Source of the DNA: a virus
Lineage: Duplodnaviria > Heunggongvirae > Uroviricota > Caudoviricetes
DNA: 40,799 nucleotides
IMG/VR virus record: IMGVR_UViG_2698536687_000008
Span: 1-40,799 of that record
Direction: 5' to 3' (one strand)
Below are positions 1,009 to 40,799 of the stretch, piece after piece (positions within the stretch are counted from its first letter, which is position 1; every line of letters starts with the position of its first letter). Made by a program: the position numbers and the translations under genes. The notes beneath the pieces are model-generated. The model worked only from the letters and a program-made list of their open reading frames with translations, was not told the origin of the DNA and did no database searches.

Positions 1009-1083
1009 GTCCTCTTAGTTAAATGGATATAACGAGCCCCTCCTAAGGGCTAATTGCAGGTTCGATTCCTGCAGGGGACACCA
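1009..1083 (+). tRNA. argW: tRNA-Arg (anticodon CCU)
   Basis: 75-nt cloverleaf GTCCTCTTAGTT...GCAGGGGACACCA with anticodon loop CTCCTAA and encoded CCA end; matches argW from memory. Confidence 0.95.
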
Positions 1084-1244
1084 TTTATCAGTTCGCTCCC
1101 ATCCGTACCAGTCCGCAAAATCCCCTGAATATCAAGCCTTCCGTAGATTAGCAGTTCGTCATGGTTCGCGTCAGATCGTTGACAGCCGCACTCCATGACG
1201 GGTAAAAAGTGGATAAAATAATTTTACCCACCGGATTTTTACCC

Positions 1245-2402
1245 ATGCTCACCGTTAAGCAGATTGAAGCAGCAAAGCCGAAAGAAAAACCATATCGCCT
1301 TCTCGATGGTAATGGCCTGTACCTTTATGTCCCTGTATCCGGGAAAAAGGTATGGCAGCTTCGCTACAAGATTGACGGTAAGGAAAAAATACTGACCGTA
1401 GGAAAATATCCGCTAATGACTTTGCAGGAGGCAAGAGATAAAGCATGGACCGCGAGGAAAGACATCTCGGTTGGCATCGATCCGGTAAAAGCGAAAAAGG
1501 CTTCGTCTAACAACAATTCCTTTAGTGCGATTTACAAGGAATGGTACGAGCACAAGAAGCAAGTCTGGTCAGTAGGCTATGCAAACGAACTTGCCAAAAT
1601 GTTTGACGACGACATTTTACCCATCATCGGCGGCCTTGAAATTCAGGATATTGAGCCGATGCAACTGCTGGAAGTAATCCGCAGATTTGAAGATCGCGGT
1701 GCAATGGAGCGAGCCAACAAAGCCCGCAGAAGATGCGGAGAGGTTTTCCGTTACGCTATTGTCACCGGAAGGGCTAAATATAACCCGGCACCTGACCTTG
1801 CAGACGCCATGAAAGGATACCGCAAGAAGAACTTCCCGTTTCTTCCTGCAGACCAGATCCCGGCATTCAACAAAGCACTGGCAACATTTTCAGGAAGTAT
1901 CGTATCGCTTATTGCGACTAAAGTTTTACGCTACACCGCCCTAAGAACGAAAGAACTTCGTTCCATGCTATGGAAGAACGTCGATTTTGAAAACAGGATT
2001 ATCACCATCGACGCCAGTGTGATGAAGGGTCGAAAAATTCATGTGGTCCCGATGTCAGACCAGGTGGTTGAACTTCTTACTACGCTAAGCTCAATCACCA
2101 AACCAGTATCAGAGTTTGTTTTTGCCGGACGCAACGATAAGAAGAAGCCAATCTGCGAGAACGCGGTGCTACTTGTGATCAAACAAATCGGCTATGAAGG
2201 TCTGGAAAGCGGTCACGGATTCAGGCATGAATTCAGCACGATTATGAACGAGCACGAATGGCCTGCTGACGCTATTGAAGTGCAACTAGCACATGCCAAC
2301 GGCGGATCTGTGCGCGGTATTTACAACCATGCTCAGTATCTAGATAAGCGCAGAGAAATGATGCAATGGTGGTCGGACTGGATTGATGAAAAGGTGGAGT
2401 GA
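1245..2402 (+). CDS. intS: Tyrosine recombinase, P4-type prophage integrase
   Basis: ORF track frame opens at GTG 1209; first ATG at 1245 gives MLTVKQIEAAKPKEK..., 385 aa, recognised as KplE1/CPS-53 IntS; tRNA-adjacent position. Confidence 0.9.
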   Translation: MLTVKQIEAAKPKEKPYRLLDGNGLYLYVPVSGKKVWQLRYKIDGKEKILTVGKYPLMTLQEARDKAWTARKDISVGIDPVKAKKASSNNNSFSAIYKEWYEHKKQVWSVGYANELAKMFDDDILPIIGGLEIQDIEPMQLLEVIRRFEDRGAMERANKARRRCGEVFRYAIVTGRAKYNPAPDLADAMKGYRKKNFPFLPADQIPAFNKALATFSGSIVSLIATKVLRYTALRTKELRSMLWKNVDFENRIITIDASVMKGRKIHVVPMSDQVVELLTTLSSITKPVSEFVFAGRNDKKKPICENAVLLVIKQIGYEGLESGHGFRHEFSTIMNEHEWPADAIEVQLAHANGGSVRGIYNHAQYLDKRREMMQWWSDWIDEKVE

Positions 2403-2554
2403 TCCACCTTAACCACTATCGAAGAGCACAAAGCCTTGCAATCCAGCGCAAAGCTTTGTTTGTCTCAGTTTTGTCTTATCAACCACAGCAAGTATCGATC
2501 GTTTAAGATTTGGATGATAGACTTCATGCCTTTGATTATTAGCTGATAGAATAA

Positions 2555-2917
2555 ATGTTAAAGCTATTTGCAAAGTACACCTCGATTGGTGTGCTGAACA
2601 CACTTATACACTGGGTGGTTTTTGGTGTATGTATCTATGCCGCGCATACCAATCAGGCTCTGGCAAACTTCGCAGGTTTCGTTGTGGCTGTGAGTTTTAG
2701 CTTCTTCGCGAATGCAAGATTCACATTCAAAGCATCGACTACAACGATGCGCTACATGTTATATGTCGGGTTCATGGGAACACTGAGTGCTACTGTTGGA
2801 TGGGCTGCTGATAGATGTTCACTTCCTCCAATTGTCACTCTTGTCACCTTCTCCGCCATCAGCCTGGTGTGCGGTTTCGTCTATTCAAAGTTCATTGTCT
2901 TTAGGGATGCGAAATGA
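2555..2917 (+). CDS. gtrA: Bactoprenol-linked glucose translocase (flippase) GtrA
   Basis: 120-aa four-TM protein of the GtrA family; first gene of a gtrABS operon. Confidence 0.88.
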
Positions 2918-3840
2918 AGATATCTCTTGTAGTTCCTGTCTTCAATGAAGAAGAAGCGATACCAATTTTTTATAAAACGGTACGAGAGTTCGAAGAGTTG
3001 AAGCCATATGAAGTGGAAATTGTTTTCATAAATGACGGAAGCAAAGACTCTACGGAGTCAATTATTAATGCTCTGGCTGTTTCAGATCCCCTAGTTGTTC
3101 CGCTGTCATTTACGCGCAACTTTGGTAAAGAACCAGCATTGTTTGCAGGATTAGACCATGCAACTGGGGATGCTATAATCCCAATTGATGTTGACCTGCA
3201 AGACCCGATTGAGGTTATTCCTCATCTTATTGAAAAGTGGCAGGCAGGTGCTGATATGGTGCTTGCTAAACGATCTGACCGCTCAACGGATGGTAGACTG
3301 AAGAGGAAAACCGCCGAGTGGTTCTATAAGCTGCATAACAAAATCAGCAACCCGCAGATCGAGGAAAATGTTGGAGATTTCAGGCTAATGTCTCGCGAGG
3401 TGGTAGAAAACATTAAGCTCATGCCTGAGCGCAACCTTTTCATGAAGGGTGTTTTGAGTTGGGTTGGTGGTCGCACTGATATCGTTGATTATGCCCGCGC
3501 AGAACGTGTTGCTGGCAGTACCAAGTTCAACGGATGGAAGTTGTGGAATCTTGCTCTTGAGGGAATTACGAGCTTCTCGACTTTTCCGCTACGTATGTGG
3601 ACTTACATCGGCCTTCTCGTCGCTGGCTTAGCATTTACATATGGCGCATGGATGATTCTGGACACTCTGGCGTTTGGAAACCCGGTTAGAGGTTATCCAT
3701 CCCTGCTGGTATCGATACTTTTCTTGGGCGGGATTCAGTTGATCGGTATAGGGGTACTTGGTGAATACATCGGAAGGATTTATATCGAGGTTAAACAGCG
3801 TCCAAGATATATTTTAAAGGGTAAGAATAAAAATGATTAA
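2914..3840 (+). CDS. gtrB: Bactoprenol glucosyltransferase GtrB (GT2 family)
   Basis: 308 aa with N-terminal GT2 domain (VVPVFNEEE...DGSKD...DVDLQDP) and C-terminal TM helices; start overlaps gtrA stop. Confidence 0.9.
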
Positions 3841-5287
3841 CAACTCAAAACGTTACTCGTATGTTATTTTTATATTTATATTGCCAATTATCCTAGCAAA
3901 TCAATTTTATGTTGATGATATTGGGCGAACGACTGTTGGTTATACTAAATGGGGTGTGGACGGGAGGCCTGTAGCTGATATAGTAATGTCAGTTCTCAAT
4001 CTTAGCTCCAGAATCGTCGATCTTGCACCTCTACCAATCATTCTTGCTTCTGTGCTGCTTGCAATATCTTTTGCATGTTACAGAAAGAGGTTTCTTGATG
4101 GGGGAAAATGGAGCTTTATTATACCTCTGGCATTCATGGCGAATCCAGCTATTATATCAATGTTCTCTTATCGGTTTGATGTTTTAACTTTCAGTTTCTC
4201 CATTGCATCTGCATTTGCTCTCTTTGCAATTAAGTGCAAAAGACTGGCTCATGAATTAATAATAGGCACCGCATTTGTAGTGATAGTGCTTGGCACTTAT
4301 CAGGCAGTCATTAATGTCGTTGCGATTTTATTAATATGTGAAGTAATAGTTAACATGGCCAGATTTACTGACCCGCAGTTAATACTTAAAAGGGTTGCAT
4401 TACGTATAATGCAGGTTTTAGTAGGTGGTGTGATATACGTGAAATTCATATTACCCATAACTTTTAGCGGGCATTATTCATCTAATCACCCAAGAATATC
4501 AAATGATATATTTGGTGCACTAAAGAATAACAGCTTAAAGTATTACGATTTTGCTTCTACAAATTTTTACAGGGTTATCGGTGGTGAATTATTACTCCTG
4601 TCAGCTTTAGCTTGCATTATTATGACGGCGTTTCTGAGTTACAAATACGTTAAATGTAAAGGCCTAAACTGGAAAGTATTTAACGTTATAACTGGAGCGA
4701 TACTCGCAACAGCAATCGCTATGCCAATGACTATGGGGGCATTGCTGGTTCTCGCCAACCCATTGGGAGGAGTTCACTTATACATGTCGGTTGGAGTTTT
4801 TTATGTCCTCATGAGTACATTGCTATATTATTGCTTTAAAGAACATAGATACGTAACATCAATTACATTAATACCCGTATTGTATTCTATGATTTTAATG
4901 TATGCATACGGAAATGCTTTGAAGGCTCAGGAAAGGATAAATAAAGTAGTTCTTTCTGAAATTATGCAATCCATTCGCGACGCTGGTAGTGATAATGTTA
5001 GCATTGTGTTTACCGGCACAGCACCAAGATCCGAAGCTGTAAAAAATGCAGCATTAAACTTTCCTTTGATAAACTATTCAGTCACAGATTACTTCTGGAA
5101 CTGGTATTGGGGAAGTGCGTACATGTCATTTAATGGGATAAAGAATACATACATGCCAGCAAACAAGGCTAAAAATTACATTTCTCATAAATGTGAAGGT
5201 AACCTATCCTTTCAGGGGCAATGGCTAAATTCCTATATCAAGGATAGCGTTTTGATTGTTGATTTTGATAAAAAATCCTGCCAATAA
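3833..5287 (+). CDS. Serotype-specific O-antigen glucosyltransferase (GtrS/GtrC-type polytopic membrane protein)
   Basis: 484-aa multi-TM protein directly after gtrB; strongly AT-rich coding sequence typical of horizontally acquired gtr type-specific genes. Confidence 0.75.
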
Positions 5288-5301
5288 AGTCTATTGGCAG
5301 G
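5270..5301 (-). terminator. Rho-independent terminator ending the late (tailspike) transcript
   Basis: 10-bp perfect stem CCTGCCAATA/TATTGGCAGG with 5-nt loop, followed on the minus strand by ATTTTTTAT; overlaps gtrS stop codon. Confidence 0.6.
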
Positions 5302-5322
5302 GGTTTCCCGGCCTAAAATCCA

Positions 5323-7482
5323 TCAATAGGTATAAATAGGTTGATCTTCTACAGGCACGCACTTCATTCTGAAGAATGAATAATAACCTGAATTACCTGT
5401 GAAAGTAAGAGTTAATGTGCTACCAGTGAATGTTGCTGTGGGTGCTGGTATTAATGTGGTCCCAGCCTTCGAGCGTCCCTGGTAGCCAGTAACAGTTGTT
5501 GTTGTTCCTACCAACACTGTAAATCTTAAATCCTGCTGTACAGTGGATGCGGTGTTTCTCATCAAAAGCCTAACGCTATACTCACCTCCATCTGCAATAT
5601 TTCCAATCTGGATACTAAAGCTCACTGTACCATTTGCAGTTACAGTAGGAGTTCGCATTGTATACTGGTCTAGCAATCCAACAAATTGAACTGTAAAAAG
5701 CCTCTGCGCTGAAAGTGTAGTCGATAAGCTATCTGTGATAGGGTGTTGGTTTTTTATGACAATATTGTAGGAGCCATATCCTAAATCTTTAGTAAGATTC
5801 TGGAATTTTGTTACCACTCTTGGATTTTCAATTATCACTCGTGATCTTTCAGATGGGAGGTATTCTCCTGAAGTAGTGTCAAAAACATTCCCTGACTGCA
5901 CCGCCAGATCTTTAATGTCGTGATTAAAGTATGTCCCTGTTGAATAAAACTCTGAGGCAACACCATGCACAAAAACACGATGCCCTGTCTCGCTTGCAGG
6001 TACTCCAATCCATTCTGTATACCCACCAAACATATTAACATTGCCGCAATAAAAAAGAGCAAACTCTCTGTTGTACCCTTCTATTGTTACGCCATACAGG
6101 TCTATATCGAAGCTATTGTAAGCATACATAAATGTAGTTACATATGCGATATTCGGTCTATTAGAATCACTTATGCTTCGATGGAACCATTGCTGAGTAC
6201 CATCAGCAAAAAGGAAAGAAGTGTTACCTGTAAAATAACCAGCATCTATGCGTATAGCGGTGCATTGATACACAAGAAATGTTGCGTATTTAGCACCAAA
6301 AGCAAAGCAATCGCGGATAGAGATATCCCATGAACCATTCAACCAGTACCCAACCTTGCAATTATACACCGCGACTTTATTAAGTCTGGAGGCTGGCACG
6401 CGCCAAATTCGAACACCGCATTGTGTATCTGCAAGACCGATAAATACTATGTTTTCCAGGGTAGCCCCGTAATACCCATCACTTTCAGTACGACCGTATA
6501 ACATTTCGTCTGTTGTCGTATACCGCTTAGAGTTATCCTTTAGCCATGGAGCTGTGTCAAACATTATCTTTGAGGTTTCCATAGTTGGCATAGCCACAAT
6601 GCAGGCGCATCCAGCCCGGGAAAAACGAAATCCTGGACTGCCGCCGGTTCCCAAAATTCGCACATTAGGTGCACCATAGATGGTGTCATTGATGTAGAGT
6701 AGCCCCGCTGGAATTACCACATCACCCCCCTGATGGCTATCCATATCCTTATCTAAGTATGGGTTTAAGTAGGATATCGCGGCGTTAAGCATAGGTGCGC
6801 TATCAAAAGTGTTGTCGTTAATTTTAGCACCAAACTCCAGAGGGGATACTGTGCGATTAAGATACGCGGCTACAAACTCTCTCTTCCAGCGTCCGGTTCC
6901 GACATTGCCTGTTGGGTTAATGGTATAGCCTCCGTCATCAGTATCAGTGCTGGTTGAATTCCAGCGGAAATATCCTCCGCCATAACCAGCTCCAAGGTGA
7001 TAAGAATCAACATAGACTCTTCCATTTTCCTTAACTGATGAGTATGCAGTAAATGCTCGTAGATCTGCTATTGATGAGAATGTACCAAATAATGCATAAG
7101 AATCAGGCGCAGACATCTTGGCAAGCCATTCTGCAGAAAACTGATCCGGGTCATACTTCAGCACATTAGGAAAATAGAACTGCTGCACACCGTATGCATC
7201 ATAAACAGCCATCGAATGGCCTTGCACAGTTACGAACTTGGCAATCTGTCCGTTATATACCGGGTAACCAGCCGCATTAATGATGATTGGTTGCGAAACA
7301 GGAACGTGAGAACCGTCTTCGTTCTCCACATAAACCTGAATCTGGTTTTCAGGATTTACCGGGTCAGTGTCAATTTTACCGATATAAATTTTGCCATTGG
7401 CTACGGCTTTAAAAGAATGAGCCATGGTGAAGAGTTGCGAAGGCATGCTGACCACAACATTGGCATTTATTGAATCTGTCAT
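5323..7482 (-). CDS. Tailspike protein (P22 gp9-like head-binding domain plus divergent beta-helix receptor-binding/O-antigen-cleaving domain)
   Basis: Start ATG at 7482 gives [18 protein letters not shown]...; first ~110 aa match the P22/Sf6/HK620 tailspike N-terminus from memory; rest is divergent. Confidence 0.9.
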
Positions 7483-7569: not shown

Positions 7570-8078
7570 ATGAACTGGAACGAAGTATTCGTATTAAAAG
7601 ACGATGGACTCCTGTACTGGAGTGACCAATATCTTTCAAGACCCAAAATGTTCAATATCTCTAAAGAAAAGCCTGCAGGACATATATTCAAGGACAAGAA
7701 CAGGAAAACCTCTTATATAATTATTAGGTATCAAGATAAAATATACGCCGCCCATAGGATAATATGGGAAATGTTTTATGGTGAAATCCCTTCCGGAATG
7801 CAAATTGACCATAAAGATGGTAACGGGTTAAATAATTCAATAGACAACCTGCGTCTAGTTAGTCTCGGTGAAAACCTAAAAACAAATCTAAATACACAAA
7901 CAATACATCTGGGTGTGCTGGGGTTTCATGGCATAAGACCCATAAAAAGTGGGTGGCATATATTAGCGACGCAGGGAAGCGCATTAATCTCGGATACTTT
8001 AAGAGTCTCGATGATGCAATTGCTGTAAGGCGTGAGGCTGAAAAGACCTATGGTTATCATGAGAATCATGGTAGGTGA
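7570..8078 (+). pseudogene. HNH-AP2 homing endonuclease, reading frame broken in an A-rich tract
   Basis: Frame A (7570-~7880) carries the HNH motif IDHKDGNGLNNSIDNLRLV; the AP2 domain GVSWHKTHKKWVAYISDAGKRINLGYFKSLDDAIAVRREAEKTYGYHENHGR continues in the -1 frame to a stop at 8076-8078. Confidence 0.6.
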
Positions 8079-8209: not shown

Positions 8210-8470
8210 ATGTACAGCAAATACGACGAGGCGAAGTTTCACTTGAGACTTCCGCATGAACTCCACGCGAAAATTAAGCAGCGTGCGAAGATGAATAACA
8301 GGTCGCTGAACTCAGAGATAATTGCAGCGATTGAAGAATCATTGGCTAAACAAAGCTCTGCACCAGTTTACATTGACGATGCAGAGCGTATGGCAGAACA
8401 ACAATCTGATATGGTTAAGAAAATTGTCTTTGATACGCTCAAAGAGATATATAAAAAAGACAGCAGTTAA
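8210..8470 (+). CDS. Mnt-like ribbon-helix-helix repressor (Arc/MetJ superfamily)
   Basis: 86 aa from ATG 8210; KFHLRLPHELHAKIKQRAKMNNRSLNSEII RHH motif and C-terminal DAERMAEQQSDMVKKIVFDTLKEIYKK resembling P22 Mnt. Confidence 0.75.
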   Translation: MYSKYDEAKFHLRLPHELHAKIKQRAKMNNRSLNSEIIAAIEESLAKQSSAPVYIDDAERMAEQQSDMVKKIVFDTLKEIYKKDSS

Positions 8471-8490: not shown

Positions 8491-8568
8491 ATGCAAAGAG
8501 ATATGCTGAATATTGCGTTCTACATATTTGGTTTTTGCACGTTCCTGGTGTTTGCGAAGCTATTCTGA
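8491..8568 (+). CDS. Hypothetical 25-aa hydrophobic peptide
   Basis: ATG preceded by RBS ACGGAGG; encodes MQRDMLNIAFYIFGFCTFLVFAKLF; very short, unverified. Confidence 0.25.
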   Translation: MQRDMLNIAFYIFGFCTFLVFAKLF

Positions 8569-31755: not shown

Positions 31756-32635
31756 CGTGTTCACCCTCACGAACTTTCAGGTAGGTATTGTCGTTAAGCA
31801 GGAAATCAAATCCCTTTTTGTGCCAGACGGTTCCGCGTTGATGGTTTGGACGCTCTTCGAACATCCATCGGCAATTTTCGCCTACGTAGCTCAAATAATT
31901 TCTCCAGTCCTGCATCGTGAACCCATGCCCGTCAAGCTGGCGGGTTATCACTCCGGCTTTGCGCCAGAACGTTCGGATCTGGTTTTTACGCTTGTCATTC
32001 AGTGCGCGGATTCTTGGCGCTTCAGGAAGGATTTCGTGGTAAGCATCGACAACATCCTGACAGCTAACGGAAGGTTTTTTCTTGTCAGACTTTTTGTCTG
32101 CTGTGGCACTCTCTAATACGTCAGTATTAGAGATATTATTTATATTATTGTTTATGGACAACCGTTGGACAACCGTTGGACAATCTCCGCTGAGAGCCGC
32201 TCCATTACTGGTGTTTTCGTTGGACAACCGTTGGACAACCGTTGGACAATTTTTTGCCTGAAAATCGTCATATTTAACGATTGTAAACAGGCTAAATTTC
32301 TTCCCCATCGAGCAAATATTAAGCATACCTTTCGACTCAAAAGTCCGTAATAAGCTCCGAACTTTGTTGTCGGGGATGAATGTTTCTCTGACCAGCGACG
32401 GGCGTCCAGTTATCATCTGACCGCGATCAACAGTTATCGGACCGATATCCGTATTGACGACAGTAGATTCGTGATTAGCCTTGAGGATTAAGTGAAGCCA
32501 AAGATGTACTGCCTGAGAGTCCTTATAGAGCCTGCTGTCCATAAACTGGCGGTGTATAGAGACATACCCCATACTGGATGCCTCCTGATGTTGTACAGGG
32601 TTATGCCTGTAATCAGCTAACTTAACGACGCCCAT
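31745..32635 (-). CDS. Replication initiator protein (lambda O / P22 gp18-like) containing the origin
   Basis: 296 aa; internal iterons translate as repeated CPTVVQRLS; position between cII and helicase. Confidence 0.8.
   Translation of the reverse strand: MGVVKLADYRHNPVQHQEASSMGYVSIHRQFMDSRLYKDSQAVHLWLHLILKANHESTVVNTDIGPITVDRGQMITGRPSLVRETFIPDNKVRSLLRTFESKGMLNICSMGKKFSLFTIVKYDDFQAKNCPTVVQRLSNENTSNGAALSGDCPTVVQRLSINNNINNISNTDVLESATADKKSDKKKPSVSCQDVVDAYHEILPEAPRIRALNDKRKNQIRTFWRKAGVITRQLDGHGFTMQDWRNYLSYVGENCRWMFEERPNHQRGTVWHKKGFDFLLNDNTYLKVREGEHDDR
32163..32254. repeat. Origin iterons: six near-identical copies of TTGGACAACCG in two clusters, with adjacent AT-rich tract (32140-32162)
   Basis: ATGGACAACCGTTGGACAACCGTTGGACAA ... 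CGTTGGACAACCGTTGGACAACCGTTGGACAA, next to ATATTATTTATATTATTGTTTAT. Confidence 0.75.
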
Positions 32636-32789: not shown

Positions 32790-32859
32790 TCCTGTGGATT
32801 GATCCAGTCTTTCTACATCAGGCCTCGAAGAATTCGCCGTTCTTCGGGGCTTTTTCTTT
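32790..32859 (+). ncRNA. OOP-like antisense RNA overlapping the 3' end of cII
   Basis: Plus-strand intrinsic terminator (stem CCTCGAAGAA/TTCTTCGGGG then CTTTTTCTTTT) antisense to the last cII codons, as for lambda OOP; -10-like CATAAT at 32780-32785; 5' end approximate. Confidence 0.4.
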
Positions 32860-33096
32860 TGTCAGCATTCTGGCTACTTTCTTAGCCAGTTCCGCCAACT
32901 CCTCGTCTTCAACACCCCATTCAAGAACAGCCAGAAGCATTCCCATTTTTGGGATGAAGCTATCTTTCCATCGAGAAATTTGCGATTCATTAATCCCTAA
33001 CGCGTCGGCAACCTTTCGCTGACCACGTACAGCAATTCGATTCAGGATGTTGCTTGTAATTGCATTCGCTTTCTTGCGAGTACTTGTAAGTTCCAT
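32818..33096 (-). CDS. cII: Transcriptional activator CII (P22 C1-like)
   Basis: From ATG 33096: MELTSTRKKANAITSNILNRIAVRGQRKVADALGINESQISRWK...MLLAVLEWGV; strong similarity to lambda CII / P22 C1. Confidence 0.85.
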   Translation of the reverse strand: MELTSTRKKANAITSNILNRIAVRGQRKVADALGINESQISRWKDSFIPKMGMLLAVLEWGVEDEELAELAKKVARMLTKEKAPKNGEFFEA

Positions 33097-33147: not shown

Positions 33148-33155
33148 GTTGTATT

Positions 33156-33198
33156 CCCGCATTTCGGCGGGAATGAGGACCATGACTGTTAAAGAGCG
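33156..33198 (-). promoter_or_regulatory. nutR (boxA CGCTCTTTAACA plus boxB CCCGCCGAAATGCGGG)
   Basis: Minus strand boxA matches the rrn/lambda boxA consensus, followed by a boxB hairpin; identical elements recur as nutL. Confidence 0.65.
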
Positions 33199-33204: not shown

Positions 33205-33399
33205 CTATTTGTTTTTCTTGTTGCTTGGGAAAGGACGAACTTCCTCTCCAATCACACTGCCATCAGGCTTTACCGTAACCATGATGTTACGGCCTGCCAG
33301 AATGGCCTTGCTGATAGCGCACTGGATTACACCAAAGTCACTGGCTGCTTTAGCCTGTCCATGGATTTTGGCGTAATCGGCAAGTGTCATTCGAATCAT
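33205..33399 (-). CDS. cro: Cro repressor
   Basis: From ATG 33399: [62 protein letters not shown]; lambda Cro-like; the track start at 33405 is GTG. Confidence 0.8.
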
Positions 33400-33430
33400 A
33401 TGCACTCTCCGTTATTAACCATGAACAAAG

Positions 33431-33470
33431 AATACTACAGGTATTCAAAGCAATCAATACTCAGGGTATT
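33431..33470. promoter_or_regulatory. OR operator region with divergent pR/pRM: two 15-bp palindromes AATACnnnnnGTATT
   Basis: AATACTACAGGTATT (33431-33445) and AATACTCAGGGTATT (33456-33470), 25 bp centre to centre, between cro and cI. Confidence 0.55.
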
Positions 33471-33505
33471 TTTAGTTTAAGTACCTTAGCTATTAGAATT
33501 AAGCT

Positions 33506-34222
33506 ATGGAAAATAAAAAATCACTGACGACAGAACAGCTGGAAGACGCTAAGCGGCTTAAGGCTTTGTATGAGTCAAAAAAGAAAGAATTGGGGATAAC
33601 CCAATACTCAATCGCTGATGAACTGGGTATCACCCAAGGAGCGGTAGGCCATTATCTTAATGGCAGAAATGCGCTAAACGTTGAGGTTGCATCTGGTTTT
33701 GCACGATTGTTGCAAGTCTCAATTGCTGATTTTAGCCAGTCAATTGCTGCCAAGGTTGCAGAACAGGCAGAAAGCCTTAAGAGCGATGCCAACGTAAGGT
33801 ATGCAGGGGAATACAGAGCAGGAAAGAGGTATCCGGTGTTAAGCAGTATCCAGGCTGGCTCGTGGTGTGAAGCATGCGAACCATACACCATTAAAGACAT
33901 AGATGTTTGGCTTGAGTCTGACGCGCATATTCAAGGTAATGCGTTTTGGCTTAAAGTGGAAGGTGATTCAATGACGGCACCGGTTGGGTTAAGCATTCCA
34001 GAGGGAACATTCGTTCTTTTCGATACCGGAAGGGAGGCGATCAACGGCAGCTTGGTCATAGCAAAACTTTCTGACTCTAACGAAGCAACATTCAAGAAGC
34101 TGATAATCGACGGCGGAAATAAATACCTCAAGGGACTTAACCCTGCATGGCCTCTCGTGCCAATCAATGGAAACTGCAAGATTATAGGCGTTGCAATTGA
34201 GACAAAACTAAGGCTGGTTTGA
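33506..34222 (+). CDS. cI: CI repressor (HTH plus S24 LexA-like autopeptidase domain)
   Basis: 238 aa; N-terminal HTH (QYSIADELGITQGAVGHYLNG) and C-terminal GDSM serine motif; divergent from cro. Confidence 0.9.
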   Translation: MENKKSLTTEQLEDAKRLKALYESKKKELGITQYSIADELGITQGAVGHYLNGRNALNVEVASGFARLLQVSIADFSQSIAAKVAEQAESLKSDANVRYAGEYRAGKRYPVLSSIQAGSWCEACEPYTIKDIDVWLESDAHIQGNAFWLKVEGDSMTAPVGLSIPEGTFVLFDTGREAINGSLVIAKLSDSNEATFKKLIIDGGNKYLKGLNPAWPLVPINGNCKIIGVAIETKLRLV

Positions 34223-34239: not shown

Positions 34240-34608
34240 ATGGTTGGAACCGCTATAGCAAGCTTTTTTGGGATGTTGGCAATCTCGACAATTTACGGCT
34301 TAGCGCATGCTTTTATTGCGAAATCTCTATCAGAAAAAATAAGCCAGGCTTGGGCGCATAGATCAGCTCGTTTCATGATTCTGGTGATCATAGCAATACA
34401 AGGGATATCTGCATTTATCCTCTATGGATCAAGCTTATACCTATTGTATCAAGGCGCGACATTTACGCCTTACACCAGTGATTACGGAACTCTATACGAT
34501 GGTAGTGAAGACATCTCTATGGCTTGGATTGTCTTTGGTTTATCTATGGCCGTGTCTGTTGTAGCAGACATCATTAAGGTAATTCTCGTCTTAACCTTCG
34601 CTGACTAA
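34240..34608 (+). CDS. Small polytopic membrane protein downstream of cI (rex-position moron; candidate exclusion function)
   Basis: ATG 34240 with RBS AAGGGG; about three predicted TM helices; no resemblance to RexB noted. Confidence 0.6.
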   Translation: MVGTAIASFFGMLAISTIYGLAHAFIAKSLSEKISQAWAHRSARFMILVIIAIQGISAFILYGSSLYLLYQGATFTPYTSDYGTLYDGSEDISMAWIVFGLSMAVSVVADIIKVILVLTFAD

Positions 34609-34739
34609 CCCATAATCCCGGCAGCAATAGCTATCGGGATCCACTTCACATATCCCGCATAAAAAGCACTGAACAAGCAGACACCGAAAAAATAAATATC
34701 CTTTGTATTCATTTGCTTATCATTATTTCACCAAAAATA

Positions 34740-34781
34740 AATACCTTGGGTATTTACACAATAAAATACCTACAGTATTCT
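34740..34781 (+). promoter_or_regulatory. OL operators and pL promoter
   Basis: AATACCTTGGGTATT (34740-34754) and AATACCTACAGTATT (34765-34779), same half-sites as OR; -35 TTTACA 34753-34758 and -10 TATTCT 34776-34781, 17-bp spacer. Confidence 0.5.
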
Positions 34782-34826: not shown

Positions 34827-34867
34827 GGCTCTTTAACATTGATGGGATTGTCCCGCCGAAATGCGGG
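34827..34867 (+). promoter_or_regulatory. nutL (boxA GGCTCTTTAACA plus boxB CCCGCCGAAATGCGGG)
   Basis: Same boxA/boxB pair as nutR, downstream of pL and upstream of N. Confidence 0.65.
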
Positions 34868-35039
34868 AACCAAAGAGTAGTTGGCTTTGGGGTGTGGTGA
34901 AGGGTTCATGGACGGGAATATGTCGCACGTAAAGCGGCGAGGCCTGCGGGACCATTGCCGAATTGAAGTCGGACGAAGCGGGTCGAAATGGGTCTCCCAC
35001 CTACCACACCACCAAAGCTAATCATCTGAGGAACAGAAA

Positions 35040-35199: not shown

Positions 35200-35499
35200 A
35201 TGACAGTAGTCATTACATATCTGGCTGACGATAACGCCAGAAATCGCCGCAGAGCACGCAGACAGGCTCAACGTGAGCAGGCAATGCAAGAGCAGCGACT
35301 GGCGCGAAAAATTGCGCTAAAGCTCTCTGGTTGCGTCAGAGCAGACAAAGCAGCATCACTAGGAAGCCTTCGCTGCAAGAAGGCAGAAGAAGTCGAGCGT
35401 AAACAGAACCGTATTTACTACAGCAAGCCACGCAGTGAAATGGGTGTGACTTGTGTTGGTCGCCAGAAAATGAAATTAGGCAGCAAACCACTTATTTGA
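35200..35499 (+). CDS. N: Antitermination protein N
   Basis: ATG 35200 after GGAGG; arginine-rich motif NARNRRRARRQAQREQ; C-terminus ERKQNRIYYSKP...CVGRQKMKLGSKPLI parallels lambda N. Confidence 0.8.
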   Translation: MTVVITYLADDNARNRRRARRQAQREQAMQEQRLARKIALKLSGCVRADKAASLGSLRCKKAEEVERKQNRIYYSKPRSEMGVTCVGRQKMKLGSKPLI

Positions 35500-35577: not shown

Positions 35578-35778
35578 ATGACTACGACTATTGATACAAA
35601 TCAATGGTGTGGACAATTCAAGCGATGCAATGGATGCAAGCTGCAATCGGAATGCATGGTTAAGCCTGAAGAAATGTTTCCTGTAATGGAAGATGGGAAA
35701 TATGTCGATAAATGGGCAATACGAACGACGGCAATGATTGCCAGAGAACTTGGTAAACAGAACAACAAGGCTGCCTAA
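35578..35778 (+). CDS. ral: Restriction alleviation protein Ral
   Basis: 66 aa, MTTTIDTNQWCGQFKRCNGCKLQSEC..., near-identical to lambda Ral from memory. Confidence 0.8.
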   Translation: MTTTIDTNQWCGQFKRCNGCKLQSECMVKPEEMFPVMEDGKYVDKWAIRTTAMIARELGKQNNKAA

Positions 35779-36004: not shown

Positions 36005-36139
36005 ATGATGCACTTTCAGCTCGCGGGTAGCGGCGTCATGTCCGCTTTCTACCCGCACGAATCTGAATTATCACGCCGAGTTAAACAATTAATCAGAGCA
36101 GCAAAGAAACAACTGGAGGCGTTATGCGCAATGAAATAG
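36005..36139 (+). CDS. cIII: CIII-like FtsH inhibitor
   Basis: 44 aa from ATG 36005 (RBS AAGGAG); HFQLAGSGVMSAFYPHESELSRRVKQLIR parallels the lambda CIII central helix. Confidence 0.55.
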   Translation: MMHFQLAGSGVMSAFYPHESELSRRVKQLIRAAKKQLEALCAMK

Positions 36140-36276
36140 CCATTAATCACCAGATGCTTCGTGCTGCACAGAACAAAGCAGTAATAGCCCGATTTATTGG
36201 TGATTCCAAAATGTGGCTTGAAGCAAATAAAGCGATGAAATCAGCTATCAACCTTCCGTGGTATCGCAGGAAATGA
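36124..36276 (+). CDS. Kil-like small protein
   Basis: 50 aa, RBS GGAGG; VIARFIGDSKMWLEANKAM resembles the lambda Kil core; start overlaps the cIII-like 3' end. Confidence 0.4.
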   Translation: MRNEIAINHQMLRAAQNKAVIARFIGDSKMWLEANKAMKSAINLPWYRRK

Positions 36277-36357: not shown

Positions 36358-36669
36358 ATGATGATTCTGACTCTGAATGATAAGCGTGAAATATCGCAAA
36401 TAATCGCAAGTTTTACTGATGAAGATTACGAACGAATCAACAGTGAAGTTGATCGCCTCTGCAAACGTTGCGACCCAATAAGCGAAATGCTTCGCTCATA
36501 TAAACCAGATGAACACACTAAGGACGCTATCGACTGGCTGGAAGATGATGACTGTAACTATCAGGAAAAAGCCGCTGAATGGTTCTGGGATGCAATAACC
36601 GAAAGAGTTAAGGCTGAATATGCCTTCGCAATATTCAAACGCAGACACATTTATGGAGAAGCAGCATGA
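36358..36669 (+). CDS. Hypothetical acidic protein at the gam position (candidate nuclease inhibitor)
   Basis: 103 aa, highly acidic, immediately upstream of recT; no family recognised. Confidence 0.55.
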   Translation: MMILTLNDKREISQIIASFTDEDYERINSEVDRLCKRCDPISEMLRSYKPDEHTKDAIDWLEDDDCNYQEKAAEWFWDAITERVKAEYAFAIFKRRHIYGEAA

Positions 36670-37577
36670 GCAATATCGTTGAATTCGTTAAACAGCAGGA
36701 GCAGTTATTCTGCGGAGCATTGACTGAACAGACGGTGACATGGGCTAAGGAAAGCCAGTTTGCAATTCAGTATTTCCAGAAAAATGATTACCTGGCTAAA
36801 ACGGCACTGGCAAATCCAACCAGCGCACAGAACGCTATCATCAATGTTGCGGCGATCGGCATCACCTTAAACCCGGCCAGCAAACTGGCTTATCTGGTTC
36901 CTCGCGACGGCATGGTTTGCCTTGATATCAGCTATATGGGATTGCTCCATATTGCAATGGAGTCTGGTGTTATCTCATGGGGTCAGGCAAAACTTGTTCA
37001 TGCTAACGATACCTATGAGTCAAACGGGCTTGATAAAGCACCAACCCATAAATACAACGCCTTCGGTGATCGTGGTGATATCGTTGGCGTTTACTGCACA
37101 GTTAAGACGCCAGCAGGTGATTATCTAACGGAAGAGATGAGTCTGGCTGAAATTGAGGCTGTAAGGAAAACAAGCAAGGCAGCATTCAGCGATAAAGGAC
37201 CATGGGTAAATCACTGGAATGAGATGGCGCGAAAGACGGTCGTAAAGCGTGCAAGCAAGTATTGGCCTAAGGCATCACGTCTTGATAGTGCTATTCACGT
37301 ACTAAACGAAGAAGAAGGTGTGTGGACTGAACCAGTTATGCCGCACAAATCAGAGGAAGATATCCGCGAAGATGAACGGAAACGCCAGCAGGAAATAACG
37401 GATAAAGCACAACTTCTTTGTGATGAAATGGCTCAGGCTGAAAACATGGATGATTTGAAGCGATATTTTGCAGAAGCATATCGCCTGACATCTGGAATGA
37501 AATTGCAGCAGAACGTACAAGCCATTTACATAGAATGCAAAGCGAAACTGGAGGTTGCCAGTGAGCAAACTGTATGA
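36666..37577 (+). CDS. recT: RecT-family single-strand annealing recombinase
   Basis: 303 aa with RecT-like core (…LAYLVPRDGMVCLDISYMGLLHIAMESG… GPWVNHWNEMARKTVVKR…). Confidence 0.85.
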   Translation: MSNIVEFVKQQEQLFCGALTEQTVTWAKESQFAIQYFQKNDYLAKTALANPTSAQNAIINVAAIGITLNPASKLAYLVPRDGMVCLDISYMGLLHIAMESGVISWGQAKLVHANDTYESNGLDKAPTHKYNAFGDRGDIVGVYCTVKTPAGDYLTEEMSLAEIEAVRKTSKAAFSDKGPWVNHWNEMARKTVVKRASKYWPKASRLDSAIHVLNEEEGVWTEPVMPHKSEEDIREDERKRQQEITDKAQLLCDEMAQAENMDDLKRYFAEAYRLTSGMKLQQNVQAIYIECKAKLEVASEQTV

Positions 37578-38043
37578 AATAGCCAATGAATACGCAAAGC
37601 TGATGGATTCAGATTTAGAGCCAGAGATGATTGCTGACACAATAGAAGGCATGGAAGGAGAATTTACCGATAAAATAGAGCAACTTCTTTCCGTCATTAA
37701 AAATGAATCTGGTTATGCTGAACGCCTCAAGGAAGAGGCAAAGTCGCTGAATGAGCGAGCCGCAGTAATTCAAAATAAGATTGACAGCATCAAATCATAT
37801 ATAGCGTCATCGCTTGAAATGGTTGGCAAGAAAAAGATTCGAGCAGGTATTCACCAGGTAACAATCCGCAAACCGTCAGAAATTGTAGAAATCATCGACT
37901 CAAGCGCCCTTCCTCCTGAATACGTTGAGTTTGAAACGACAATTAAAGCCGACAAACTGGCAATCAAACACCAACTAAAAGCAGGAATAAATATCCCCGG
38001 CGCTCAACTCAAAGTTGGGAAACCTTCACTTCTTATCAAATAA
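37561..38043 (+). CDS. Gp157-family protein (RecT-associated)
   Basis: GTG start 6 nt after GGAGG; MSKLYEIANEYAKLMD...; typically encoded beside recT. Confidence 0.6.
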   Translation: MSKLYEIANEYAKLMDSDLEPEMIADTIEGMEGEFTDKIEQLLSVIKNESGYAERLKEEAKSLNERAAVIQNKIDSIKSYIASSLEMVGKKKIRAGIHQVTIRKPSEIVEIIDSSALPPEYVEFETTIKADKLAIKHQLKAGINIPGAQLKVGKPSLLIK

Positions 38044-38054
38044 CGGTATCGACT

Positions 38055-38369
38055 ATGAAAAAGACTCCATGGGAGAAATGGGAAGTCGATTTCTTGCGCG
38101 AAGTGGCGGCGACAATGCCAGTTGAAGTTATCGCTGAAAAACTGGAAAGGACTGAAAAAGCAGTAATGGCGAAAGCAACAAGGATTGGAGCTGACATTGT
38201 TAGCCGACTTCGTGGAAGACGCTGGACAAGAGCCGAAGTATCACTTTTCGGTAAGTTCTCCGCAGAAGAAATAGCAATTGCAACCTGCCGCTCAATTTAT
38301 TCAGTAAGAGCTATGCGATACAAGCTAAAAAAACTCGATGAAGAAAGAGCAGGCATACGAATAAATTAA
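38055..38369 (+). CDS. Hypothetical protein (104 aa)
   Basis: Intact ORF in the pL operon; no family recognised. Confidence 0.55.
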
Positions 38370-38385
38370 CAAAGAGGAATTTACC

Positions 38386-38553
38386 ATGAGAGGACTTGCA
38401 TACAATCCCGGCATTCTTCCGGCAGAAATGATTATTCGCCAACGCGTAAAGCCAATGCCATCGAGAGAGGAATTGCTTAAGAGAAATTCTTTTCCATCAG
38501 TGAATAAAAACAAATATCTGAATGCGATGTTGCGCAAAGGAGGCAACCAGTGA
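38386..38553 (+). CDS. Hypothetical small protein (55 aa)
   Basis: ATG preceded by AAGAGGAA; stop overlaps the next start; not in ORF track. Confidence 0.35.
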
Positions 38554-38804
38554 GTAATTCAGCACGACTACAGCTTGGTTTTTCACCGCTATCAAAAACT
38601 ATCATGCTGGCAAAAATGCGCGATGTTGAAGGTGGACGTATGCGCGTTGGCAATGATCCAGGTCGTGATGTTACCAATGAGGCTGCTCAATTGGTGTGGC
38701 GACTGGTCATGGCTGAAGGTGGTGAGATCGCGTGGGAGCTGGAAGATGGTTCTCGCATGGTGTTGAAGGCAGAAAAGCAGGAGGCAACCAGTGAGCGAAA
38801 TTAA
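38550..38804 (+). CDS. Hypothetical protein (84 aa, GTG start)
   Basis: AGGAGG RBS followed by GTG; translationally coupled to flanking ORFs. Confidence 0.45.
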
Positions 38805-39192
38805 TTACCAGGCACTGCGTGAGGCGGCAGAAGCAATAAAAATAGCAGCCACACCACAAAAATTGCTGGCATTTCGTATGAAGGTCACACCTCAGGTTGT
38901 GCTGGCACTGCTGGATGAACGGGAAAGAAACCAGCAATACATCAAACGCCGCGACCAGGAGAACAAGGATATTGCGCTAACGGTAGGGAAGCTGCGTGTT
39001 GAACTGGAAGCAGCAGAGAAGCGAATTTCTGAGCTGGAGGCGCGGGAGGTTGTGCTGCCGAGTACGCAAGATGTTCACCCATTAGGGCCGCAGTCGGCGA
39101 AAATTTTTTGTGAGTTTCACAGAAATATTATCAACAGATGCGCCGATGAGATTCGCAAAGCTGGCGTTAATGTCAGCATCAAGGGGGAGTAG
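38791..39192 (+). CDS. Ead/Ea22-like early protein
   Basis: 133 aa beginning [16 protein letters not shown]..., N-terminal pattern common to Ea22-like proteins of lambdoid pL operons. Confidence 0.5.
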   Translation: MSEINYQALREAAEAIKIAATPQKLLAFRMKVTPQVVLALLDERERNQQYIKRRDQENKDIALTVGKLRVELEAAEKRISELEAREVVLPSTQDVHPLGPQSAKIFCEFHRNIINRCADEIRKAGVNVSIKGE

Positions 39193-39196
39193 GGAT

Positions 39197-39937
39197 ATGG
39201 CTGAACTAACCAAAGAATGGCTGAAGCAAACTATCGCTGAATACGAAGCCAATCGTGATGAATTACCGTTTGGACTGGATATCAACAGTGCCATTGAGCT
39301 TCAGGCGTTCAAGTTGGCGCTGGCATCGCTGGAAGCAGAACCAATAGGTGCATTCCACATTGCTGAACAGCAAGTTGACGGCACAAGTGACTATCTCAAG
39401 GATGGAGAATGGCCTATTGATAATGGGATTATTGAGGTTTACGCCGCTCCGCCAGTACCGGTAGTACCTGCTGCATTACCTGAGAACGACGATGAGGACG
39501 GGCATGACATTGATTATCTTGAGCCATCTGAAGTTTACGCGCTTGGGCGAACAGCTGGCTGGAACGCCTGCCGCGCCGCCATGCTTCAGGGTAAATCCGA
39601 ACAACCACAAAACGCACAACAAAATATTCCGGAAAATATTCCCGGTGGCAACTCTCCGGTAACTCCGGATGGTTGGATAAGCTGTAGTGAGCGAATGCCT
39701 GTAATTGGCGAGCTAAATTGGAGAACTAGTTTTCCTTTACTGGTTACGTGTGAGATCGGCGTTATACCTGCTTATTACGGCTTTGTGAGCGTTAATGGTG
39801 ATAGGCATTATGGCTTTATGGAGAGTCTTAAATACGGAGACGATAACGGCAACCATCCTCAAACTAATGAATATGGTCTGATTAGCAATGTCACACACTG
39901 GATGCCGCTACCAGAACCGCCGCAGGAGGTGAAGTGA
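39197..39937 (+). CDS. Ead/Ea22-like protein with C-terminal DUF551-like domain
   Basis: ATG 39197 after GGGGAGTAGGG; C-terminal GWISCSERMPVIGE...HWMPLPEPP resembles DUF551. Confidence 0.55.
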   Translation: MAELTKEWLKQTIAEYEANRDELPFGLDINSAIELQAFKLALASLEAEPIGAFHIAEQQVDGTSDYLKDGEWPIDNGIIEVYAAPPVPVVPAALPENDDEDGHDIDYLEPSEVYALGRTAGWNACRAAMLQGKSEQPQNAQQNIPENIPGGNSPVTPDGWISCSERMPVIGELNWRTSFPLLVTCEIGVIPAYYGFVSVNGDRHYGFMESLKYGDDNGNHPQTNEYGLISNVTHWMPLPEPPQEVK

Positions 39938-40215
39938 TGGACTCCTTCGCGAAATATACGATTATTGACTGGATAGCATTCCTTCAGGTTTTGCTCATCT
40001 GGTTTTATATGGCTTACAGGAGTGGACAGTGGATTGTCAGTGTAGCCTGTAGCAAGGGATGGCGTTGGTGGAACCGGAAGAATAAAAAAGCACTGGCATT
40101 GGATTCGTTTTACGAAGCATTCAATCTTAACAGCCTTCAGCCTGGTTCTGTCATTGTAGTCACCACTCAAAGCGGCATGACCATTCAGATTCATAAACCA
40201 AAAGAGGAAAAATGA
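39937..40215 (+). CDS. Hypothetical protein (92 aa)
   Basis: ATG 39937 after AGGAGG; hydrophobic N-terminal segment. Confidence 0.45.
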   Translation: MDSFAKYTIIDWIAFLQVLLIWFYMAYRSGQWIVSVACSKGWRWWNRKNKKALALDSFYEAFNLNSLQPGSVIVVTTQSGMTIQIHKPKEEK

Positions 40216-40373
40216 TGTGGCCTATATGTGTTAATTGCGGACGGATGTGCCTATCTGGATGGTGCCGAAAGTGCGACAAATGCACGAAGCAAAGACAATA
40301 ACAATCCTCGCACTCGCGGGGATTTCTTTTATCTGAACTCGCTACGGCGAGTTTTGTTTTATGGAGATGATAA

Positions 40374-40541
40374 ATGCACTTCCGAGTCACAGGTGAATGG
40401 AATGGAGAACCATTCAACAGAGTTATCGAAGCCGAGAACATCAACGACTGCTACGACCACTGGATGCTGTGGGCGCAGATAGCACATGCAGACGTAACCA
40501 ATATTCGAATTGAAGAACTGAAAGAACACCAAGCCGCCTGA
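40374..40541 (+). CDS. Hypothetical small protein (55 aa), last ORF before the terminator
   Basis: RBS GGAG 7 nt upstream of ATG; stop overlaps terminator stem. Confidence 0.35.
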   Translation: MHFRVTGEWNGEPFNRVIEAENINDCYDHWMLWAQIAHADVTNIRIEELKEHQAA

Positions 40542-40554
40542 TGGCGGTTTTTTA
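40533..40554 (+). terminator. Rho-independent terminator at the end of the pL operon
   Basis: GCCGCC-TGAT-GGCGG(T) stem-loop followed by TTTTTTATT. Confidence 0.6.
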
Positions 40555-40563
40555 TTGCCTGAT

Positions 40564-40579
40564 TTGCAGGTTCGATTCC
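40564..40579. repeat. 16-bp exact direct copy of the argW T-arm segment TTGCAGGTTCGATTCC (also at 1054-1069)
   Basis: Exact 16/16 match to tRNA positions 1054-1069; flanks on both sides are not tRNA-like; lies 19 bp upstream of torI ATG. Confidence 0.6.
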
Positions 40580-40598
40580 CTATTCGGAGATAGCACTC

Positions 40599-40799
40599 AT
40601 GCAACACGAACTACAACCTGATTCACTGGTTGATTTGAAATTCATCATGGCTGATACTGGCTTTGGTAAAACCTTCATCTACGACCGAATTAAGTCCGGC
40701 GACCTGCCTAAAGCCAAAGTTATCCACGGTCGAGCAAGATGGTTATATCGTGACCATTGTGAATTCAAAAATAAGCTCTTAAGCCGCGCTAATGGGTAA
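40599..40799 (+). CDS. torI: Excisionase / recombination directionality factor TorI
   Basis: 66 aa, MQHELQPDSLVDLKFIMADTGFGKTFIYDRIKSGDLPKAKV..., recognised as KplE1 TorI; stop codon is the last three bases of the window. Confidence 0.9.
   Translation: MQHELQPDSLVDLKFIMADTGFGKTFIYDRIKSGDLPKAKVIHGRARWLYRDHCEFKNKLLSRANG

Follow-up and report, generated by a model that had tools for sequence, protein, structure and literature searches.

The 40,799-nucleotide stretch of viral DNA analysed here (IMG/VR record IMGVR_UViG_2698536687_000008, positions 1 to 40,799; hereafter the window) very probably carries an apparently complete P22-like temperate phage of the Lederbergvirus type, integrated in the 3' end of the Escherichia coli tRNA gene argW. 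A preliminary description had proposed a complete P22-like prophage of ~39.7 kb at the argW/KplE1 locus, and this was borne out: measured from attachment core to attachment core the prophage unit is 39,804 bp, and phages HK620, Sf6, IME10 and P22 span 38.3-41.7 kb. The source is an E. coli contig, LOOY01000011.1 (GCA_001576035.1), which overlaps the window in stretches of 17,482 and 11,603 bases with 0 mismatches. Judged by its sequence the prophage appears complete, and excision and induction are predicted on the same basis. It is an ordinary mosaic, already annotated in GenBank and another instance of a well-known, common and well-described kind; only the module mix, together with a rare tailspike and O-antigen glucosylation cassette, is new.

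To identify its genes, we compared each open reading frame (ORF) of the window by tblastn with K-12 KplE1, a related E. coli prophage, IME10, HK620, Sf6 and P22, and searched Pfam, NCBIfam, PHROG and PDB for domains and families, together with the precomputed domains for the source contig. Tested against the P22-type cluster, 13 of 13 genes (TerS, TerL, portal, scaffold, coat, gp4, gp10, gp26, gp14, gp7, gp20, gp16 and tailspike) were present, collinear and full length. The lambdoid early layout was likewise found, with pL and pR flanking cI, followed by cro/cII, O/P-type replication genes, nin, Q and a lysis cassette upstream of the head genes. Every gene of the module set that had been listed from the letters (tailspike to TerS, lysis, Q, nin, helicase, O, cII/cro/cI and N/ral/recT) was recovered in the order claimed, as were the anchor genes, with intS by argW, then gtrAB, and torI at the far end. 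Gene content and an exact P22 pac site point to a short-tailed virion with headful packaging. The virion and packaging genes are listed first, with coordinates, strand and the evidence for each assignment; here and below, features without a strand are given without one.

8560-10557, minus: gp16 ejection protein; 99% to Sf6 gp13, full length; Pfam Phage_P22_gp16
10557-11852, minus: gp20 ejection protein; 98% to Sf6 gp12, full length; Pfam Inj_translocase
11862-12554, minus: gp7 ejection protein; 99% to Sf6 gp11, full length; Pfam P22_gp7
12557-13012, minus: gp14, 151 aa; 93% to P22, length matches P22; Pfam DUF2824
13012-13713, minus: tail needle gp26, 233 aa; 77% to P22, length matches P22
13713-15131, minus: gp10, 472 aa; 93% to P22, 99% to IME10, length matches P22; Pfam Phage_stabilise
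15131-15631, minus: gp4, 166 aa (source-contig gene call); 61% to P22 over most of its length, length matches P22; Pfam P22_Tail-4
15609-15875, minus: small ORF, 88 aa, with a (Glu-Pro)n repeat, at the position of P22 ORF69; Tandem Repeats Finder (TRF), 6-nt unit x 8.7 copies at 15679-15730
15920-17215, minus: coat gp5; 99% to IME10, 73% to P22, full length; Pfam P22_CoatProtein
17215-18126, minus: scaffold gp8; 99% to IME10, 85% to P22, full length; Pfam Phage-scaffold
18140-20305, minus: portal gp1; 99% to IME10, 78% to P22, full length; P22_portal, E=6e-164
20306-21805, minus: TerL, 499 aa; 92% to P22 gp2; Terminase_6N and 6C domains
21783-22277, minus: TerS; protein 100% and 489/495 nt identical to P22 gp3; GP3_package domain
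21983-22004, minus: P22-type pac site inside the TerS gene, 22-mer GAAGATTTATCTGAAGTCGTTA; exact match
22307-22549, minus: DUF2560 gene; Pfam DUF2560
22653-23024, minus: Sf6 gp66-like gene; Pfam Phage_gp49_66
23183-23725, minus: Rha-family regulator; Pfam Phage_pRha and ORF11CD3

The 22-mer GAAGATTTATCTGAAGTCGTTA, which we take to be the P22 pac site, does occur in P22 gene 3 (position 23479). A recombination boundary lies within the packaging module: TerS is identical to that of P22, the adjacent TerL is 99% identical to IME10 and 92% to P22, and the TerS of IME10 is 82% identical. Between coat and gp4, the (Glu-Pro)n ORF encodes 88 aa, against 82 aa in CP148366, a related prophage.

The left end of the prophage and its recombination genes were assigned as follows.

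1-933, plus: host gene yfdC (left flank); 933/933 nt identical to K-12
1009-1083, plus: argW, tRNA-Arg(CCU), the integration target; ARAGORN; Rfam tRNA, 63.4 bits; 75/75 nt identical to K-12
1069-1084: attL core, 16 nt, CTGCAGGGGACACCAT; equals the published KplE1 core, and alignments to phage records start at 1069
1085-1244, plus: attL P' arm overlapping the intS promoter; 157/161 nt identical to K-12
1245-2402, plus: intS, tyrosine integrase, 385 aa; Pfam Arm-DNA-bind_3 and Phage_integrase
40599-40799, plus: torI, recombination directionality factor, 66 aa; 66/66 aa identical to K-12 TorI

The features that characterize the KplE1/HK620/Sf6-type recombination module are all present, namely insertion at the argW 3' end, a duplicated 16-nt core, an intS promoter overlapping attL, and torI by attR. 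The core has the same sequence as that published for KplE1 (PMC2951348). Its second copy, the attR core CTGCAGGGGACACCAT, lies in the source contig (L015, 11677-11692, equivalent to window positions 40873-40888), ~73-74 nt past torI, and is followed there by dsdC, dsdX, dsdA, emrYK and evgAS, as in K-12. In the attL arm, five TorI pentamers (GTTCG, GTCCG, GTTCG, GTTCG and GATCG), a TTGACA -35 box and TAAA arm-type motifs are all readable, in agreement with the published description of the KplE1 attL (PMC2951348). IntS is 99% identical to K-12 IntS and 98% identical to the HK620 and Sf6 integrases. IntS and TorI of K-12 excise KplE1 in vivo (PMC2951348), and since the counterparts here are 99% and 100% identical, we predict TorI/IntS-dependent excision of this prophage as well. 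In the circular phage, attP would fall between torI and int. An Rfam scan of the window returned argW as its sole match, both at the gathering threshold and at E<=0.1.

The host DNA flanking the prophage is 100% identical to K-12 MG1655 (1,083 nt on the left and 1,109/1109 nt on the right), whereas intS is only 95.7% identical in nucleotides to K-12 intS. At this locus, then, the strain resembles K-12, yet its argW phage belongs to a different lineage.

The lysis, late control and replication genes occupy the stretch to the right of the packaging module.

24072-24509, minus: Rz; Pfam Phage_lysis
24125-24310, minus: Rz1, embedded in Rz; lipobox LGVSAC
24506-24982, minus: endolysin R, lambda-type; lambda lysozyme 1AM7, E=2.6e-105, 158/158 residues
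24966-25289, minus: holin S; Pfam Phage_holin_3_1
25880-25915, minus: late promoter pR'; exact match to the annotated HK620 pR'
25958-26581, minus: late antiterminator Q, 207 aa; PF03589 Antiterm, E=1e-57; 99% to HK620 Q, 96% to P22 gp23
26578-30319, minus: nin region, with ninH, rusA, DUF1364/YbcO, roi (KilAC, antirepressor-like), ninF, ninE, a Dam methylase gene, ninB and three small ORFs; homologue identity; Dam PF05869
30319-31755, minus: DnaB-type helicase P; TIGR03600 phage_DnaB, 584 bits, above the family cut-off; 100% to HK620 P
31745-32635, minus: O-type initiator; 99% to Sf6 gp43 and IME10 O
32155-32261: origin iterons, 11-nt unit TGGACAACCGT, in two clusters inside the O gene; repeat search and TRF

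The three small nin-region ORFs match PHROGs without an assigned function. An origin of the repeat type is also annotated inside the homologous initiator gene in the Sf6 record.

Beyond the initiator lie the immunity region and the pL operon.

32818-33096, minus: cII; 98% to HK620
33153-33198: nutR; exact match to the annotated HK620 site
33205-33399, minus: cro; 98% to HK620
33430-33495: OR1-3; exact match to the annotated HK620 operators
33506-34222, plus: cI; 100% to HK620 cI; HTH_3 and Peptidase_S24 domains
34240-34608, plus: hkaS-like ORF; HK620-type immunity region
34739-34780: OL1-2; exact match to the annotated HK620 operators
34827-34868: nutL; exact match to the annotated HK620 site
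35200-35499, plus: N; 98% to the IME10 region over ORF residues 22-123, 88% to HK620 N over residues 12-88
35578-35778, plus: ral; Pfam Ral
36005-36139, plus: cIII; Pfam Lambda_CIII
36124-36276, plus: kil; Pfam Lambda_Kil
36361-36669, plus: pL-operon ORF
36666-37577, plus: recT; Pfam RecT
37561-38043, plus: Gp157-family gene; Pfam Sipho_Gp157
38055-40541, plus: ea-type accessory genes, with a D5-like fragment, DUF2737, DUF7446, Ead/Ea22, DUF551, DUF4752, a 29-aa four-Cys peptide and PHROG 676

The cI protein is predicted from its S24 domain to be a repressor cleavable in the SOS response, and its cognate operators are present.

We then asked how far these elements are intact. The essential ORFs, which had been thought to look full length, were confirmed as such by tblastn against P22, Sf6, HK620 and IME10, and alignment showed no inactivating lesion. 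The essential proteins are 73-100% identical to their counterparts in working phages, with gp4 at 61% to P22 over most of its length; no transposase or insertion-sequence annotation turned up in any search of the window; and pac, OR1-3, OL1-2, nutL, nutR, pR', the iterons and both att cores are intact. Phages that use the same site, namely HK620, Sf6 and Kapi1, are active (PMC2951348, PMC3509656, PMC8787464).

Several points weigh against an intact phage. The attR core is not in the window itself, because the window ends exactly at the torI stop codon, and the sequence originates from a draft assembly. The HK620 OL3 and qut strings found no match in a search for exact strings alone. Missense or regulatory mutations would escape the sequence analysis used here. 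Finally, the exact combination of modules appears to be without a proven working precedent, the closest isolated phage (IME10) reaching about 59% similarity, and it pairs, for example, a P22-identical TerS with an IME10-type TerL.

On these grounds the element could instead be a cryptic, recently inactivated prophage, silenced by a missense or regulatory mutation or by incompatible modules, and kept by its host for O-antigen modification and immunity. Many enterobacterial prophages are indeed defective, including the K-12 element at this very site; neither the 50,697 phage records nor the 5,426 complete E. coli genomes contain the same combination of modules, and the lack of exact OL3 and qut matches would fit this explanation too. 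However, we found no frameshift, premature stop or insertion sequence, the essential proteins are full length and close to those of working phages, the regulatory sites, pac and both att cores are intact, and equal mosaicism is normal in active lambdoid phages. We therefore consider inactivation unlikely. Fusion by the draft assembler of segments from different lambdoid prophages of one genome is highly improbable: the source is a draft (LOOY01000011.1) and several module-sharing lambdoid prophages are common in E. coli (median 3 matching places per genome), but the gene order is canonically P22-like with translationally coupled junctions throughout, both host flanks are collinear with K-12, the contig is 936 kb long and recorded in two samples, and the unit length suits a P22-type head.

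Within the apparently complete P22-like phage, the rare parts, gtrC and the receptor domain of the tailspike, lie between intS and the ejection protein genes.

2555-2917, plus: gtrA (bactoprenol-glucose flippase); Pfam GtrA_DPMS_TM; 96% to K-12 YfdG, 80% to P22 GtrA
2914-3840, plus: gtrB (bactoprenol glucosyltransferase); Pfam Glycos_transf_2; 92% to K-12 YfdH, 88% to P22 GtrB
3833-5287, plus: gtrC, GtrII-type serotype-specific glucosyltransferase, 484 aa; PF14264 Glucos_trans_II, E=1e-21
5323-7482, minus: tailspike, 719 aa from Met16 of the ORF; Head_binding PF09008, E=6e-64
7570-8028, plus: free-standing HNH homing-endonuclease gene; PF13392 HNH_3, E=1.5e-20; PHROG 99; PADLOC homing endonuclease
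8210-8470, plus: Mnt/Arc-family repressor gene; Pfam Arc and Repressor_Mnt; 48% identical to P22 Mnt

The gtrABC glucosylation cassette stands next to int and att with all three Pfam families present, and is predicted to modify the O-antigen. The third gene has a low content of G and C (0.37-0.40), and its product is only 26-28% identical to P22 ORF485. In the tailspike, the N-terminal ~130 aa are 94% identical to HK620 gp9, and the PDB matches are to the N-terminal domains of the Sf6 and P22 tailspikes. Neither gtrC nor the receptor-binding part of the tailspike (receptor domain about 5323-7140) had a protein match in the 50,697 phage records, and the low-GC region comprising gtrC and the tailspike receptor part (about 3775-7140) had no megablast match among the 5,426 complete E. 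coli genomes. The exact tailspike protein, WP_061356608.1, is present on 2 contigs; among the 5.8 billion proteins of a database, the next closest representative of a tailspike cluster reaches 88% identity. Similar receptor domains occur on other N-terminal domains, including those of some Yersinia proteins, a distribution that is the usual domain swapping of tailspikes. The gtrC protein cluster has one member from a record labelled E. coli O112. Among the cluster members related to the tailspike/gtrC cassette are records labelled O74:H39 and O112.

The HNH gene forms an insertion that separates the tailspike from the Mnt-like gene and runs against the direction of the late operon, and HNH genes are also annotated beside the tailspike head-binding segment in other E. 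coli genomes that match there. Neither arc nor ant is present beside the Mnt-like gene, which is therefore a remnant of immI. Antirepressor-like genes are limited to roi (27412-28134), a nin-region gene with a KilAC domain. When ten accessory ORFs were run through PADLOC, no defence system was detected, and the sole matches were the homing-endonuclease models for the HNH gene.

At the far end of the prophage, we examined the DNA between the ea genes and torI, where a hairpin search returned three structures on the plus strand within 250 nt.

40303-40324, plus: intrinsic-terminator-like hairpin ahead of torI
40335-40354, plus: intrinsic-terminator-like hairpin ahead of torI
40531-40550, plus: intrinsic-terminator-like hairpin ahead of torI

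Terminator-like sites numbered 5, against 0.4 expected from shuffled sequence, and a scan of 40200-40799 for sigma-70-like promoters found none. Together, the three hairpins and the lack of a sigma-70-like promoter suggest that torI is expressed through N-antiterminated read-through from pL. The ORF of the 29-aa four-cysteine peptide (40212-40301) sits just 5' of the three hairpins. Further upstream in the ea genes, a 17-nt string, AGGAGGCAACCAGTGAG, comprising a ribosome-binding site and a GTG start, is identical at 38538-38554 and 38779-38795, before two consecutive genes, and resembles the short conserved boundary sequences annotated at module junctions of Sf6.

From the known biology of P22, lambda, HK620 and KplE1, the life cycle of the phage may be sketched as follows. 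In the lysogen, pL and pR would be kept off by cI, a repressor of the HK620 type that combines a helix-turn-helix with an S24 autoprotease, and IntS would repress its own promoter in attL, while GtrABC would glucosylate the O-antigen such that the receptor is no longer presented and reinfection is blocked. Upon DNA damage, RecA would trigger self-cleavage of cI and thereby release pL, and N would antiterminate transcription through ral, cIII, kil, recT, the ea genes and the three hairpins into torI. As N read-through would be needed to reach torI, excision would be coupled to induction. TorI and IntS would then excise a 39.8-kb circle, reversing an IntS-type integration that has duplicated the 16-nt core CTGCAGGGGACACCAT and left intS adjoining attL and torI adjoining attR. 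O is expected to bind the iterons in its own gene and recruit the phage DnaB-type helicase for replication of the circle, and Q to switch on pR' and with it the late operon. The P22-type terminase would cut at pac in the TerS gene and fill heads by the headful mechanism, and the tailspike would bind and cleave a specific O-antigen on the next host.

We also detected a short copy of argW sequence upstream of torI.

40564-40579, plus: argW T-arm copy TTGCAGGTTCGATTCC, identical to argW 1054-1069 and 20 nt upstream of torI; exact 16-nt repeat

In argW, positions 1054-1083 read TTGCAGGTTCGATTCC followed directly by TGCAGGGGACACCA; in the phage, the first 16 nt of this sequence stand 5' of torI and the last 15 nt are those of the att core 3' of torI. 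The 16-mer and the att core thus abut in argW and are 294 nt apart in the phage, with torI between them. We rejected the direct repeat at 1054-1069 and 40564-40579 as attL and attR: torI follows the second copy, the 16-mer also precedes torI in K-12 and HK620, and the true core, CTGCAGGGGACACCAT, has its second copy beyond the window. The 16-mer is kept in K-12, in HK620 and in 68 IMG/VR loci, save four singleton variants. Sites with the 16-mer or its inner block are at 11776-11791 of L001, at ~1686-1701 of L004 and upstream of torI in L101-L111. In Enterobacter, Citrobacter, Serratia, Pantoea, Edwardsiella and one metagenome-assembled genome, torI homologues (74-85% identical) are preceded at a distance of 18-25 nt by the inner block, AGGTTCGATT(C/T)C. 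Its position relative to torI is kept in phages of at least 7 genera while the neighbouring sequence diverges; a relative from Dryocola is without a clean 31-nt block at this position. The block contains GTTCG, the published pentamer of TorI sites (PMC2951348).

A consensus RNA fold upstream of torI that pairs the block with the Shine-Dalgarno region was weak (-3.2 kcal/mol, one covarying pair). In most of 80 IMG/VR torI loci the upstream region is identical or nearly so, and because of this near-identity these loci gave no covariation signal. We also considered the cII-activated pI promoter that is annotated upstream of torI in HK620. Conservation gives it no support, as the second TTGC repeat (the cII half-site) is not kept in other genera and the T-loop-like block is, and no sigma-70-like promoter was found in the region. 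The papers searched make no mention of a T-arm copy upstream of torI. It is possible, if rather doubtful, that the copy is a functional element across the whole recombination-module family and not a coincidence; it might serve as a TorI operator, form an RNA hairpin that masks the torI ribosome-binding site, or be one half of an ancestral attP block, 30 nt long and homologous to the tRNA, that was split by the torI cassette.

The value of this prophage is mostly in cataloguing, as one more mosaic P22-like argW phage with the IntS/TorI module. With its K-12-identical flanks, it could offer a natural full-length counterpart to KplE1 for studies of excision and induction, and the HK620-type immunity together with P22 pac packaging may suit phage genetics or transduction in smooth E. 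coli. The rare receptor domain of the tailspike and the rare gtrC gene suggest an O-antigen specificity that is absent from the phages sequenced so far.

Next, we placed the prophage among known phages and E. coli genomes. Neither half of the window is covered to 80% or more by any of the 50,697 phage records or 5,426 complete E. coli genomes. Of these 5,426 genomes, 72 have at least 80% coverage of the virion block (8560-22277) and 1,676 contain it in part, and close relatives of TorI are encoded by at least 443 IMG/VR contigs. By a VIRIDIC-like estimate, intergenomic similarity is about 59% to IME10, about 41% to Sf6, about 38% to HK620 and about 33% to P22. The guideline of the International Committee on Taxonomy of Viruses is about 70% similarity for a genus and 95% for a species. 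The prophage would thus count as a new species; similarity among accepted members of the Lederbergvirus type is probably low too, Sf6 and HK620 having no match to the P22-type head genes found here, and as a test of membership the guideline separates poorly. A mosaic map of closest matches assigns int to the HK620/Sf6 type, gp16 to gp7 to Sf6, the head genes to the IME10 type related to P22, TerS to P22, lysis to the Sf6/IME10 type, Q-nin and immunity to HK620, O and P to the Sf6/IME10 type, and the recT module to other E. coli prophages.

IME10 (NC_019501, Lederbergvirus) is the closest isolated phage that we compared. Protein identity to it is 99% for coat, scaffold, portal, TerL and gp10, 99-100% for O and P, and 94-100% for the lysis genes and Q, and it has the same IntS-type integrase. 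It differs in having a P22 c2-like cI (42% identical), Erf and SSB where the present prophage has RecT, and a TerS at 82%, and also in gp20, the tail needle, the tailspike receptor domain, gtrABC and most ea genes.

HK620 (NC_002730) shares the argW attP/IntS/TorI module, the Q-nin region (97% in DNA), an identical P and an identical cI, with cro and cII at 98%, exact OR1-3, OL1-2, nutL, nutR and pR', and a tailspike head-binding domain at 94%. Given the identical cI and the exact operators and nut sites, HK620 and this prophage should be homoimmune. In contrast, HK620 has its own terminase, portal, scaffold and coat of the Sf6/APSE type (from no match to 33% identity here), its own gp16 and gp20, a tailspike that targets O18A1, and an O-antigen polymerase-like gene in place of gtrABC. 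Sf6 (NC_005344) has the same integration module, with gp7/gp20/gp16 at 98-99%, O/P at 99%, lysis genes at 96-100% and ral/kil at 97-100%, but has its own head and terminase type, a 434-like immunity, oac (O-acetylase) rather than gtrABC, an IS911 insertion and two tRNA genes. P22 (AF217253) matches in gene order throughout, in an identical TerS protein and pac, in TerL (92%), Q (96%), gp10 and gp14 (93%) and coat, scaffold and portal (73-85%), and its gtrABC also adjoins int; it differs in its integrase and excisionase, a full immI (mnt, arc, ant) with sieA, a T4-type lysozyme gp19, Erf/Abc and a tailspike for Salmonella O-antigen.

Kapi1 (MT813197), an active temperate P22-like phage of commensal E. 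coli, inserts into argW at its 3' end and has the same attP, placed between int and xis; the O-antigen is its receptor and is modified by the phage, and its tailspike is conserved only in the head-binding domain, as is the case here (PMC8787464). In the right half of the window, only about 42% is shared with Kapi1 (97.5% identity), whose tailspike and O-antigen modification genes differ.

The preliminary description had also suggested an inducible relative of the K-12 remnant, and this kinship holds for the ends and fails for the interior. KplE1 (CPS-53) occupies the same locus with identical flanks, the same 16-nt core, IntS at 99%, TorI at 100%, a conserved attL arm, gtrA at 96% and gtrB at 92%. 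It matches the window at 1-3774 (host flank, attL, intS and gtrAB; 93.9%) and at 40549-40799 (torI region; 96.8%). Its interior (yfdI, tfaS, and yfdK through yfdT) has no DNA homology to the prophage, and no ORF of the window has a protein match there; at 10.2 kb, KplE1 is without repressor, virion, lysis and replication modules. As the matches are at the ends alone, the prophage is a relative of KplE1 in the recombination and gtrAB modules only. KplE1, HK620, Sf6, CUS-3 and numerous argW prophages share this recombination module (PMC2951348, PMC3509656), and the relationship between KplE1 and complete argW phages has already been published (PMC2951348, PMC3509656, PMC8787464). The proposed mosaic, in which virion genes of the P22 type are combined with lysis and control genes of the lambda type, is likewise present, but it is not a special trait of this prophage, since P22, HK620, Sf6 and IME10 share the layout: such mosaicism is the rule for lambdoid phages, and a P22 virion with lambda-type control and lysis is the standard P22-like arrangement.

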